Part shown: positions 36,762-41,226 of the stretch, piece after piece
Layout: each line of letters begins with the position of its first letter
How positions within the stretch are numbered: the first letter of the stretch is position 1
Source: a virus
Lineage: Duplodnaviria; Caudoviricetes
DNA length: 53,935 nucleotides
Direction: 5' to 3' (one strand)
IMG/VR virus record: IMGVR_UViG_3300048836_000129
Coordinates: 1-53,935 of that record
The notes under the pieces: model-generated
Seen by the model: the letters and a program-made list of their open reading frames with translations, nothing else
Database searches by the model: none
Told to the model about the DNA's origin: nothing
Program-made: the position numbers and the translations under genes

Positions 36762-38255
36762 ATGATCAATCTAATAGATTTCTGGAGAATACAGCGAAAA
36801 CAAACCGGGCAACAGACGATCATCCGGCCGTGCCATATGTTCAAGGCAAAGGCGCTGACGGATCTGGTTCTCGGAAAGTTGCCAACTCCGAATCTAATGA
36901 TCCTTGAGCCCCCACGAATCGGCAAGACGGATCTTGGGGTAAAAGCCTTTGTACCGTGGTCCTGGAGCTACTTTCCGGATTCGGAATATATCATTGGGGG
37001 ATATGGCGCTGACCTTCCGACAGAAAGCGCCGTCCACATCCGGAATACATTATCATCGCCATGGTATAAAAGCATGGTGGGTTCAGATTGGGGCTGTAAT
37101 GTAGCATTGAGGGGCGCTAAAGCTTCAGGCCGATCTGATTATTTTAAGACTCTTGAAGGTGGCGTATTAAAAGCTGTTGGTCGCGGTGGTAGTGCCACAG
37201 GATTTGGTATCGGTAAACTTCGTCCTGAATTCGGAGGTTGCGGAATAGCCGATGACTTGCTAAAGGCGCAAGAGTCAACAAGCGCACCCCTTAGAAAAGC
37301 GGCGAACGTTTTTCTAATGAGCGCTTTGATGACACGAAGGAATCGTCTTGATGATCCTTCCACGCCCATTGTATTAATCATGCAGAGGCTTCACCCAGAT
37401 GATCCAGCGGGCCACCTCCTTAAAACAGAACGACACAGATGGACCATTGTACAGATCCCGGCGCACAATGAAAAAGGTCAAAGCATTTGGGAAGAGCGTA
37501 TAAGCTCAAAAGAACTCCAATACATGAAGGAATACGCGCCTGACGTTTATCATGCCCAATACATGCAGGAACCTATCGCAGACGGATACAACATTTTCAA
37601 AGCCGAATGGTGGGGATTGTGGGATGACCGGAAGGCAGTTGAGAAAAAGATAACCTGGAAATTCATAACCGGTGACACGGCGTTTAAAGCCAAAGATTCA
37701 TCGGACTATTCTGTTTTCCAGTGCTGGGGTGCTGAAAACACCCGTGGTTTGTATCTCATGGATCAGATCCGGGGCAAATGGGAATTCCCTGAGCTTGTCA
37801 AGAGAATCAAGGAATTCAAGAATAAGCATACAAGAAACGAAATGGGCATAACCCCGGCCACCGAACTATGGATCGAAGATAAGGCCAGCGGAACGTCCCT
37901 TGTTCAAACATTGAGAGCTGAAGGAATACCATGTAACGCATGGGGCGACAAAGAAAGCGATGGCGTTTCAGGCGATAAAGCGGCCCGTGCAAAACAAACC
38001 ACATTGACATTGCAGCAAGGACGTGAGTTTGTACCTGACCCACGGATGCCGGGTTATGAATGGGTTGACATATTCGTCGGTGAACATGTCGCTTTCACGT
38101 CGGACGATTCACACGCATATGACGATCAGGTAGATACCCGGTCGATGGCAAACCTTATATGGCAAAAACGAGGCGGCGGCGTTGGTCCGCTTCCAACATG
38201 GAACAATTTAAGGAAATACGCGAATGGCCAGGAAAAAATCTACCGTCTCGAATAG
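36762..38255 (+). CDS. terL: Terminase large subunit
   Basis: Walker A PPRIGKT, Walker B IADDLLK, IMQRLH..D, nuclease DTAFK / IEDKASG / DDQVD. Confidence 0.93.
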
Positions 38256-41226
38256 GATTCAAAACGCTTCTTTTACATCTTACTCAGGGGGGCAACTCGG
38301 AGACGGCGACCGTGGTTCTTATCACATGTTGCCGAATTATACTGGCAACCCCTATGACTCCAATGATTACATTTTCAGATGGCGTCAATACTGCCACCTC
38401 TATGAAATCTCATGGGAAGCCAGAAAGATCATCCGCATTCCGATTGAAGACGCCATGCGGAAGGACTGGGAAGTCAAAGGTATTGAAGAGGCAAACGCTA
38501 ACCAGATCAAAACGCGCCTTGACCAGCTTGGTTTTAAGCTTTCTTTAATGCGCGCCATGATCCTTGAGCGTCTTCTTGGTGGATGCCTTCAGTTTTTCGG
38601 AATTGAAGATAACCGAGACGAACCGGAACGTGAATATTTACCACGGAATGGATACCGGACCAGATTCATAAATACCGTGCCCATTTCGAGGATTGCCCGT
38701 GTTGATTGGGGAACCGATCCCCTGAAAGCTGACTACATGAGACCGGAAAAATTCCTTGTGAACGGCGTCCAGGTCCACACGTCCAGATGTTTGGTCTGGG
38801 ACGGCGAACCGCTGTTTGATCCTTATGATTTCGCATTGACCAATTTTAGATCAAACATTTCAGGCTTCGGCCCTTCAAAGCTTGCGCCTATCTGGGATGA
38901 TATCGTAAGAGCTACAGGAATCAGGCAAGCGGCTTTCCAGATGGCCCAGATGAACAACTCCATAATCGCAGCTCTTGAAGGATACCAGGATTTAAGGGGG
39001 ACTGTCCCTGGTCAGAACAAGCTATCTGATATAAAGAAGCTTGTTAATGAGCTGTCAGTTTATAAAGCGGCAATCCTTGACAAGGGGAAAGTCGATGTGA
39101 CAACCCTGGCTGCTTCATTTGGATCGGTCCCGGAAATGATGATCACATCACTCCAGATCCTTTCAGCGGCTTCCGATATCCCGGCGACACGATTTATAGG
39201 TCAGGCACCTGGAGGATTAAACGCCACGGGCGAATCAGACCTTGAGAATTATTACAACGTCATTGACGCAATCCAAAAACAGAGAATGGAACCGAGGCTT
39301 AGAAAAACGTATGACATTATCGGATGGCAGATGTTCCCAAATTCATGGGCCGAAGACCGTAAAAAACTTGAGTTTGAATTTCCCCCATTGTGGAACCTCA
39401 GCGAACTGGAAGAGGCTGACAGAACATCGAAAATCATTGACAACATGGCGAAGCTTCTTGAAAACAGGCTTATCACAGAAGAAAAGGCCATTGAAGAACT
39501 GACGAAAAAGAACGTTGTCGGAGTTACGCTTGATGATATGGATATGTCGTCCTTGAAAGATACCGGCCTTTTTGATGAACAACCAAACCCGAAAGAATCA
39601 ATCGAAAAATTAAAACAATTTCCTGTGAAAAATTCAAATCCTGAATCATTATTGATAGTTGCGGCAGGTGGAAAGCCCGAAGATTTTGACGCACGTCAAT
39701 TTAAAATGGGAATGGAAGTCGAAAGGGAACACAAAGACGTCACGCATGGTGATGAAATTCAAACGGCGAAAATAGTTCTTGCACACCTACGAGAAAAGCC
39801 CGATTATTATACAAGACTTCAGAAAGTTGAAAATTCTGAAAAATGGATAACTGTTAAACCTAATGGGCCAGATGCAAAAGGTTCTCATGTTCAATTAGAT
39901 GATGACGGGAAAGTGACGGCCGGCCTTGGTGGTGGTTTTAATGGAAAACATATCTCGGAAATAAATAGTGCGTCAAAAAAAGAAACCATTCCAAAAGATA
40001 AATATTCAGATCCACAACAATATGAATCTGACCCAGAACTATCTCAAGCTGTAAAAGATGCGGCGCAGGCTGGTTTTGAGAAATATGGTGCCGGGAAAAT
40101 GAGCCGTGGAGATTTCAAACAAAAAGTAAGGAGTGGAGAAATCCCCGAAGCTGTCAAAGAGTATCATGGAAAAATTGTTGAAAGTCAAAGAATAAAAAAA
40201 GAAGGGTACGAAGCCGCAAAAAATATCAATATGCCTGATGGATATTCAATAAGTGAAAGAAATAAAGACGAAATAGCTATCCACGGAAAATATGATGAAC
40301 AACTCCATAAAAGAATTAAAAGGGCTGGAGGATATTGGGCGCAAATATCTGAATCTGGGCCTGAAAAAGGATGGGTTATAGCCAAAGAAAAAGGGAAAGA
40401 TCTCGAAAAGGCTGTCAGCAATGCTAAAAAAGCAAATGAAAAAATAAAAACAGACGAACAAGAAAAGAAAAAAGCTGAATCTGAAAAGAAGCAAAGAGAT
40501 GAAAAGGAAAAGAAAGAAAGGTTTTCCAAAGAATCTGAAGACAATAAAAAGAAAGAGGCCGAAAAGAGAAAAGAATTTGAGCGGACTCACGAATTAAAAA
40601 TGATTCCAACAGGAAAAACAATTAGAAGAAAAATAACAGACGATGATCCTTCTATTTATGGGCATGAACTACTTGGCCATGAGGGTGAAATGTGGGATTT
40701 TCCTGAAATGAAAAAAGAATGGGTCAAGAAAAATTCTATCCAAAACAAAATCGACCTTGACCCATTACCAGAGCCATCACAAAAACAAATCGAATCTGGA
40801 AACTACAAAAAACACCATCTGAAGTTGTATGGATTCGATATTTCGATTGAGAATCCGAAGGGTTCAAGGCGCTCAGGGATAGATCTTAATGGTGAAGCAT
40901 GGTCCGTTAAAATGCCAGCTCACTACGGCTATATAAAGCAGTCAGAAGGAGCCGATGGAGACCATTTAGATGTTTATATAGGCCCAAATGAAAACAGCCA
41001 AAAGGTTTTTGTGATTGACCAAACCGACCTATCGGGAAACTTTGACGAACACAAATGCTTTTTAGGTTGCAACAACAAGGAACAGGCCGAAAAGCTTTAT
41101 CTGAAAGGCTTTAGCGATGGAAAAGGGAATCTAAGGCTTGGAAGGATGATTGAAACGGATATAGACGGTTTCAAAGAATGGCTTTCAAACGGAGACCAGA
41201 AAAAAAGATTTGCTGAGTATTTTTGA
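38224..41226 (+). CDS. Portal protein (DUF1073-type) with C-terminal DUF5661-like, KWITV and inorganic-pyrophosphatase-like domains
   Basis: [31 protein letters not shown] (portal); MGMEVEREH...[21 protein letters not shown]...ISIENPKGS...HYGYI...[12 protein letters not shown]...FDEHK. Confidence 0.88.

Follow-up and report, generated by a model that had tools for sequence, protein, structure and literature searches.

What becomes of a phage portal protein that carries three further modules behind its portal fold? The question is raised by the open reading frame (ORF) at 38224..41226 (plus strand) of a 53,935-bp phage contig (IMG/VR record IMGVR_UViG_3300048836_000129), studied as the entire record and called the window here. 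The frame stays open through 1000 codons from a start at the conserved N-terminus, and the resulting 1000-aa protein comprises, in this order, a portal domain, a DUF5661 domain, a cassette of 304 residues, and a pyrophosphatase-like InPase domain. It is almost certainly a real modular portal fusion, and it is a portal-anchored polyvalent cargo protein of a kind already described, of which it represents one further member. While the fusion type itself is known (Iyer et al. 2017), what is new here is the testable prediction of an asparagine-specific head protease, together with one recurrent cargo cassette.

Architecture of the portal fusion protein

The contig starts with baseplate and tail-fibre genes, has its replication genes in the middle, and finishes with the head module; neither a terminal repeat nor an overlap between its ends was found. 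TerL (36762–38255) directly precedes the portal ORF, and the head genes follow the order TerL–portal–MuF–DUF2213–cement–major capsid protein. The portal domain is recognized by Phage_portal_3 (PF06381, formerly DUF1073) over aa 55–409 (2.2e-58; 198.1 bits against a curated cut-off of 33.8; profile positions 2–356 of 357) and by phrog_146 (portal) over aa 54–461 (1.4e-69), the latter in agreement with an initial annotation of this DNA, in which the portal fold was said to end near aa 450. In an alignment of 38 members of the portal family, columns are invariant to E425 and almost invariant to D440.

The DUF5661 domain (PF18905) covers aa 488–537 and scores 52.5 bits, above the curated cut-off (6e-14 with the whole protein, 1.2e-15 with the segment alone); a literature search on DUF5661 found no papers. 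InPase (PF18823) covers aa 854–987 (2.4e-49; 167.1 bits against a curated cut-off of 26.8; profile positions 2–134 of 135), so that both the DUF5661-like and the pyrophosphatase-like domain of the initial annotation exceed their curated Pfam cut-offs. Between them, phrog_25904 (annotated as of unknown function) lies on aa 535–587 and corresponds to the KWITVKPNG...HVQL module, which begins at aa 540, that is, at nt 39841, just where it had been read, and the charged coil noted further on appears in the model as a 68-residue Lys/Glu-rich helix. The joints divide the part behind the portal into three pieces (67, 304, and 159 aa); of the three or four cargo domains originally counted, three are retained and a fourth is not. 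LPD families were absent from Pfam scans of the 1000-aa protein and of its segments, and an LPD domain is not present in every polyvalent protein. Polyvalent proteins are defined by at least two conflict-related domains and by mosaic relatives (Iyer et al. 2017); here, the portal is joined to three modules, which are swapped among relatives.

Exchange of modules among relatives

Relatives were collected by a word-indexed search, in which 160 proteins reached E ≤ 0.001 among 7998 scored candidates; the counts that follow refer to the 120 that were listed. The portal segment was matched in 104, DUF5661 in 82, and InPase in 96, the last consisting of 80 proteins with a portal (P0002–P0105) and 16 without one (P0106–P0121). 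Matches to the middle block were few, its four parts being found in 4, 1, 2, and 1 of these relatives. According to precomputed Pfam annotation, topoisomerase IB is present in 8 of them, and ADP-ribosyltransferase domains are present in 3 portal-bearing ones.

A natural experiment is offered by three portals that are nearly identical yet bear three sets of cargo. P0002, found on a separate contig, is 98% identical to the window protein and has the same architecture. P0003, with a portal that is 99% identical, reads ...RLQKVEN|KIDLDP..., with exactly aa 538–841 missing. In P0004, again with a 99% identical portal, the sequence diverges right behind KVEN, and the new content includes topoisomerase IB (precomputed Pfam annotation). 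The break points in P0003 and P0004 show that KVEN|S and SIQN|K are the true edges of the 304-residue cassette. The view of the protein as a portal with separable modules on one polypeptide is thus borne out, with modules exchanged among relatives, and a comparison of their cargo, as had been suggested, reveals inserts that vary and break exactly at KVEN| and SIQN|. The order of the modules varies as well, InPase preceding KWITV in P0022 and KWITV preceding DUF5661 in P0082.

The initial annotation had named an assembly artefact as one outcome that would refute its reading, and P0002, on its own contig, excludes it. More generally, a frameshift or mis-assembly that fused separate genes has nothing found in its favor and a negligible probability, since no stop interrupts the 3-kb frame, P0002 repeats the architecture at 98% identity, and portal fusions with varied inserts are found in ~100 metagenomic relatives as well as in cultured phages (E217 and Serratia MyoSmar-type).

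The gene order TerL–portal–MuF–DUF2213–cement–capsid recurs in 80 related viral loci. Among complete portal ORFs, 21 of 22 in the 28 closer loci measure at least 560 aa, versus 2 of 49 in the 52 more distant loci. The sole short portal ORF of the close clade (locus L009, 7260–9109, a 57%-identical relative) stops inside DUF5661, and what is left of DUF5661, along with the C-terminal half of InPase, runs on in other frames; this extension is either decayed cargo or the product of sequencing errors. Since it is frameshifted while the portal is intact, the cargo would be dispensable.

A conserved leader of the form F-x-E-E-(E/D)-H-P-R-x-(D/E)-x-G-K-F often opens the cargo, including topoisomerase IB and ADP-ribosyltransferase, behind the ...EN or ...MN joint of DUF5661 (P0004, P0081, P0083, P0087, P0091, and P0092).

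Asparagine at the module joints

The joints PVKN|S (aa 467–471), KVEN|S (534–538), VKKN|S (834–838), and SIQN|K (838–842) lie within a few bases of the boundaries drawn in the initial annotation; PVKN|S, KVEN|S, and SIQN|K are real module borders, whereas VKKN|S has no comparative support. With 12 occurrences of the dipeptide N[SK] in the 1000-aa protein, the motif alone proves little and support from outside is needed. Among the 62 portal-family proteins in which the anchor pattern for the InPase joint was found, 45 have Asn at one fixed offset before InPase, within 25 different P4–P1 tetrapeptides; in InPase proteins that are not portals, a junction Asn is present in 0 of 11. DUF5661 ends with ...(V/I)EN irrespective of the next module, with the Asn located at +8 from a YY anchor in 46 of 83 proteins and at +9/+10 in another 15, and an Asn is found near the start of DUF5661 in 38 of 50. 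Since Asn is kept whichever module follows, it belongs to the joint and not to a single module. In an all-versus-all comparison of 89 non-identical extensions, the pairs of which are not independent, N:N was the last aligned pair at the point where homology stops in 332 of 1628 cases, N making up 3.2% of identical pairs.

Cassettes are swapped exactly at the joints among portals that are 99% identical, as would be expected if the junction sequence guided cassette exchange by recombination and no protein were cut. The junction codons vary synonymously (AAT/AAC, GTT/GTA/GTG, GAA/GAG), however, which indicates that it is the residue that is constrained, rather than a signal for recombination in the DNA. 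Neighboring residues vary too; only Asn is constant, P4–P2 differing among the 25 tetrapeptides, so that no DNA stretch is long enough for homology-guided exchange. Such recombination would also leave the motif in the scaffold tail, described below, unexplained, and this alternative is quite improbable.

Two further sequences were observed near these regions. In several of the non-portal InPase proteins (P0106–P0121), a different conserved motif, (G)RASGGR, is present upstream of InPase and could mark the joints in another lineage of phages. The portal N-terminus of the window protein contains RIQN|A (aa 11–14, 38254–38265), with N14 conserved in at least 90% of 38 family members, and this may be a further processing site.

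The prohead protease and its scaffold tail

A prohead protease, on which the initial annotation had relied, is indeed encoded by the phage: the nearby DUF2213 protein adopts the T4 gp21 fold in its predicted N-terminal domain, which matches gp21 (5jbl) with a Foldseek probability of 1.00 and E of 8.7e-4, and with a VIA Z of 12.7 (root-mean-square deviation of 2.6 Å over 142 of 166 residues). The next matches, with Z of 5–6.8, are to herpesvirus assemblins. The model consists of a confident N-terminal domain, followed by long helices. The candidate catalytic residues H85, S136, and H166 are invariant in 22 DUF2213 sequences, as is N185. The "scaffolding protein" gp24 of Pa193 (PDB 9b40) is matched by a profile of 22 homologues with 1.2e-10.

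The tail of this protein is otherwise poorly conserved, but it retains four hydrophobic-x-N sites (N185, N210, N315, and N372) in 71–94% of 51 homologues. The most conserved of them, IRIIN|KK (family form VRI(I/L)N|KK), directly borders the protease domain and is conserved in 94%, and the remaining three, MLKN|T, EFMN|S, and KIMN|A, are found in 71%, 73%, and 75%, respectively. N185 and N372 lie in linkers with low predicted local distance difference test (pLDDT) scores. When counts of hydrophobic-x-N-[SAKTQG] were compared with those in shuffles of the same sequences, the motif was 4.5-fold enriched in the scaffold tails of the close clade and 3.8-fold in those of the distant clade, 2.0-fold in the portal extensions, and 1.24-fold in the cement protein. 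In turn, it was depleted in MuF (0.63-fold) and in the capsid protein (0.68-fold, and 0.46-fold for hydrophobic-x-N). This ranking fits what would be expected of the site of a maturation protease, as the scaffold, where the motif is richest, has to be removed, and the shell, where it is poorest, has to last.

To our knowledge, no phage head protease has Asn at P1. A literature search on head maturation or prohead proteases and cleavage after asparagine found no report of a head protease that cuts after Asn; the sole related match was a paper on phage SPN3US (PMC10052503), where asparagine is mentioned in deamidation settings.

Cleavage at Asn may also proceed by cyclization of the asparagine itself, with no protease involved. 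Asparagine cyclization is known from inteins and from the maturation of some viral coat proteins, and P1 is Asn at every joint proposed here. It needs specific folded surroundings, however, whereas the joints lie between unrelated modules, in linkers predicted with low confidence, and a dedicated protease gene is located nearby; self-cleavage is thus highly improbable.

The 304-residue cassette

An exhaustive representative search with the cassette matched 369 proteins at E ≤ 0.001, 47 of them at E ≤ 1e-10, and resolved it into the KWITV mini-module and a domain of ~160 aa. Many of the matches listed are to the ~160-aa domain, often located at residues ~8–170 of proteins of 250–500 aa. The model of the cassette, which is confident for block residues 51–250, comprises a helical bundle, a small alpha/beta unit, and the 68-residue helix.

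The KWITV module recurs near the N-terminus of many proteins, including fusions of cargo to DUF2213 and LPD-type polyvalent proteins (P0246 and P0268), and it is also found on a Mu-type portal with InPase (P0203); LPD1 and LPD3 were found only in distant proteins that share this module. In P0127, P0193, and P0198, KWITV comes first and DDPS(I/V)(Y/W)GxELLGxEGExW last in a block that is N-terminal to DUF2213, with P0127 including in addition an N-terminal NUDIX domain ahead of the cassette; P0251 holds part of the cassette elements. All four of these cassette–DUF2213 proteins have a hydrophobic-x-N site shortly before the protease domain. As judged from these fusions, the cassette thus appears to ride on whichever protein ends up within the procapsid.

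Stand-alone homologues of the globular domain belong to no Pfam or PHROG family, apart from one sub-threshold HARP match in P0130. With the cassette itself, Foldseek found no match in the PDB at E ≤ 0.001 and none in BFVD at this threshold, the latter giving short local matches (62–80 columns) to viral proteins annotated as topoisomerases. A VIA-wide comparison found only generic coiled coils matching the long helix (Z 6.3–6.8), the ESM Atlas gave no usable feature match and structural matches below a TM score of 0.5, and phrog_25904 was the only match among PHROGs. Relaxed Pfam scans of the segments remained at noise level (Enc34_ssDNA-bd 0.032, SH3_3 0.13).

InPase and the known portal–InPase fusions

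Residues E876, R883, Y901, D911, D916, D941, E942, K944, and D965 of InPase are identical in all 97 aligned segments, and D913 is found in 90 of the 97. Similarity to family-I pyrophosphatases, including the enzyme from M. tuberculosis, is weak (E ~0.01) and extends over the IExPxG...YGxI...DGDxLD motifs. The acidic and basic active-site residues of the InPase module are intact, the conserved acidic metal-binding residues of type I pyrophosphatases (E876, D911, D913, D916, D941, E942, and D965) among them.

The InPase domain was defined by Iyer, Burroughs, Anand, de Souza, and Aravind (2017, PMC5512222), who, in the available text, state that it is fused to portals (for example, BcepF1.124), suggest its injection, and propose pyrophosphate or a nucleotide-like signal as its substrate. 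In phage records, the InPase segment has 461 matches, 293 of them in Pseudomonas phages. It matches residues 635–762 of the Pa193 portal gp19 with 4.7e-32, and the C-terminus (~aa 635–765) of the 765-aa portal gp19 of E217 (Pbunavirus) is InPase, with 46% identity over 133 aa. Only residues 94–528 of the Pa193 portal were modeled according to the accessible text of the two structural reports (PMC11042391, PMC11456595), where the first 93 residues are seen neither by cryo-electron microscopy nor by liquid chromatography–mass spectrometry and a pyrophosphatase is not mentioned. The Pbunavirus gp19 (E217; Pa193, PDB 9b41) resembles the window protein in being a PF06381-type portal that ends in InPase, and the head module is also the same, including a DUF2213 protein, a cement protein, and a PF09950 capsid protein. 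It differs in that an Ala/Glu/Pro-rich linker connects the portal to InPase, with DUF5661, the cassette, and any clear hydrophobic-x-Asn joints missing.

Proposed maturation and delivery of the cargo

A portal is dodecameric, and its C-terminus, in the established portal architecture, faces the capsid interior, so that twelve copies of the extension, as the initial annotation had supposed, would be built into each head. During maturation, the DUF2213 protease would cut after Asn at PVKN|S (N470), KVEN|S (N537), and SIQN|K (N841) while degrading its own scaffold, which would free pieces of ~7.7, 34.6, and 18.1 kDa and leave a portal of 53.6 kDa. The freed pieces would be ejected along with the DNA and act early on in the host infected next, where InPase would then hydrolyze pyrophosphate or a nucleotide-like phosphoanhydride. 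This explanation as a whole, in which portal cargo is cut free by the DUF2213 protease, ejected, and acts early, is in our estimate evenly balanced. Cleavage at the Asn joints, to which the sequence comparisons point, is slightly favored, and ejection of the cargo falls just short of an even chance. A specifically anti-defense role, as had been envisaged for the cargo, is unlikely; PADLOC gave no match for the 1000-aa protein, the cassette, or six minus-strand ORFs.

A number of observations weigh against this explanation. Asn is absent from the exact offset in 17 of the 62 InPase joints and from +8 to +10 in 22 of the 83 DUF5661 ends, and at the left ends of homology N:N reaches only 124 of 2267 pairs, a weak excess (5.5% versus 3.2%). 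VKKN|S is seen only in the window protein and in the 98%-identical P0002 and does not have the hydrophobic-x-N form. In the scaffold tail, the model shows a helix around N315 and a small hairpin around N210. The shuffle ratios of the motif also exceed 1 in the portal domain (1.86-fold) and TerL (1.57-fold), which means that relatedness inflates all of these ratios. The DUF2213 protein of E217 lacks VRIxN|KK and its portal linker has no clear equivalent, so that the Asn rule is clade-specific at best; a candidate use of Pbunavirus as an experimental proxy for the rule was dropped for the same reason, the motif being absent from both the protease/scaffold and the portal linker of E217. A folded 34.6-kDa piece would need to be unfolded in order to pass through the tail channel. 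For residues 529–765 of the Pa193 portal, no density was found and cleavage is not stated in the accessible text of PMC11042391 and PMC11456595.

The extension might instead stay uncleaved and tethered to the portal in the head, or act only on the unassembled portal in the producing cell, with Asn serving as a structural linker or capping residue. The Pa193 portal would be an example, no cleavage being reported in that text for the region that includes InPase, and the shortness of the motif, its moderate enrichment in the portal domain and TerL, and the joints without Asn would all be accommodated. We consider this, the main alternative, rather unlikely. A pyrophosphatase locked in a DNA-filled capsid would have no evident substrate. 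Furthermore, a mere linker residue would be expected neither to show a 4.5-fold enrichment in the scaffold tails alongside a depletion in the capsid protein, nor to be kept right where the protease domain ends, as it is in 94% of the 51 sequences.

Returning to cleavage by the DUF2213 protease, we tentatively propose that the gp21-fold protease of this clade has an undescribed P1-Asn specificity (hydrophobic-x-Asn|small/Lys) and that the portal C-terminus serves as a plug-in rack, on which any module flanked by the motif is loaded in twelve copies, to be released by the protease and delivered. Proteins that are injected together with the DNA of a phage act ahead of phage gene expression and are thus prime candidates for early takeover and counter-defense, and they are hard to spot by sequence alone. 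If the proposal is true, the Asn motif would allow the proteins and fragments injected by an entire group of uncultured myophages to be read from sequence, and the KWITV...DDPSxYG cassette, which elsewhere is also found on protease–scaffold proteins, would be a widespread injected factor. If the protease does not cut after Asn, the locus would be one more portal–InPase fusion, of a kind known since 2017.

Comparison with related systems

Cleavage by the T4 protease gp21 follows (L/I)-x-E, and its substrates include internal proteins and Alt. In phage SPN3US, gp245 cuts head proteins, including the portal, after A-X-E, with Ser preferred at P1', as described in the available part of PMC10052503. 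The DUF2213 protease shares with these two the gp21 fold, and its proposed site would likewise span three residues, P1 being fixed, P3 showing a preference, and P1' being small or Ser; by analogy, the hydrophobic-x-N site would be the gp21/gp245 site grammar with a new P1. The substrates in the gp245 and gp21 systems, as far as the available text covers them, comprise the scaffold as well as internal proteins of the head, and some of these are ejected. In the window phage, P1 would be Asn and not Glu, and the cargo is carried on the portal C-terminus and not by its own targeting leader.

Effectors are also anchored to MuF, and MuF polymorphic toxins are further examples of this arrangement. 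In the accessible text of PMC5512222, 2H phosphoesterases are fused to MuF or portal domains, and the MuF-anchored effector fusions cited there are like the window protein in that an effector is hitched to a protein built into the head. The carrier here, however, is the portal, and the MuF of the window is a plain protein of 304 aa.

The closest resemblance to the polyvalent proteins and portal–InPase fusions of Iyer et al. (2017), again as far as the available text goes, lies in an InPase of the PF18823 type on a portal, the terminase–portal module, mosaic shuffling, and the proposed delivery into the host. The window protein differs from their polyvalent proteins in the absence of LPD and in having one recognizable enzyme only. 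Furthermore, processing is tied in that text to peptidase domains inside the polyvalent proteins (P1 DdrB) and not to junction sites for a prohead protease.

Table 1. Coordinates of the portal fusion protein, its parts, and the two head genes discussed with it.
Feature	Position	Strand	Remarks
Portal domain (aa 1–470)	38224..39633	+	PF06381, phrog_146; ends at first joint ...FPVKN|S (N470)
DUF5661 module (aa 471–537)	39634..39834	+	PF18905; flanked by PVKN|S and KVEN|S
KWITV mini-module (aa 538–~590), start of cassette	39835..39993	+	phrog_25904 at block residues 2–53; pLDDT 56–69
Globular domain (aa ~591–720), helical bundle and small alpha/beta unit	39994..40383	+	AlphaFold pLDDT >90, block residues ~51–250
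Long charged helix (aa ~721–788)	40384..40587	+	Single helix, block residues 184–251 in model; Lys/Glu-rich
Cassette tail (aa 789–841), motif [18 protein letters not shown]	40588..40746	+	Ends ...VKKNSIQN|K
InPase module (aa 842–1000) and stop codon	40747..41226	+	PF18823
MuF-like head morphogenesis protein without cargo, 304 aa	43768..44682	+	PF04233 5.3e-09; phrog_324 3e-45
DUF2213 protein: prohead protease domain (aa ~14–172) and coiled-coil scaffold tail	44837..46027	+	PF09979 1.7e-32; phrog_530 "head maturation protease"

Other loci

Extensions of MuF in four related loci were considered as independent carriers of cargo and rejected, as they appear to be inteins. The MuF proteins concerned (L010, 5374–7218; L045, 4149–5855; L052, 2427–4253; L057, 3835–5541; 568–614 aa) carry inserts that begin with Cys within a conserved ...INC motif and end with ...HN|C just before RC, and these look like inteins, not cargo.

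Between the portal and MuF of the window, a block of small minus-strand ORFs (41552–43622) interrupts the plus-strand head module. It is characterized by low GC content and a reversed GC skew, and includes a Cys-rich protein of 135 aa (phrog_19515, annotated as of unknown function). The interval between the portal and MuF varies in relatives from an overlap to ~6 kb, which marks it as an insertion hot spot.

In the remaining part of the contig, a DNA methylase of 639 aa (17353–19272, plus strand; N6_N4_Mtase 6.7e-16) gave matches to Hint_2 (3.5e-4) and LAGLIDADG_3 (9e-5), both below the curated cut-offs, and possibly contains an intein with a homing endonuclease. A series of genes of sugar or modification type (glycosyltransferase-like, S-adenosylmethionine methyltransferase, sulfotransferase-like, and Stealth CR2-like) is located on the plus strand between the head and neck genes (48446–52345). 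Near the baseplate genes, an 805-aa protein (3554–5971, plus strand) contains a collagen triple-helix repeat (1e-06) and probably forms a tail fibre.

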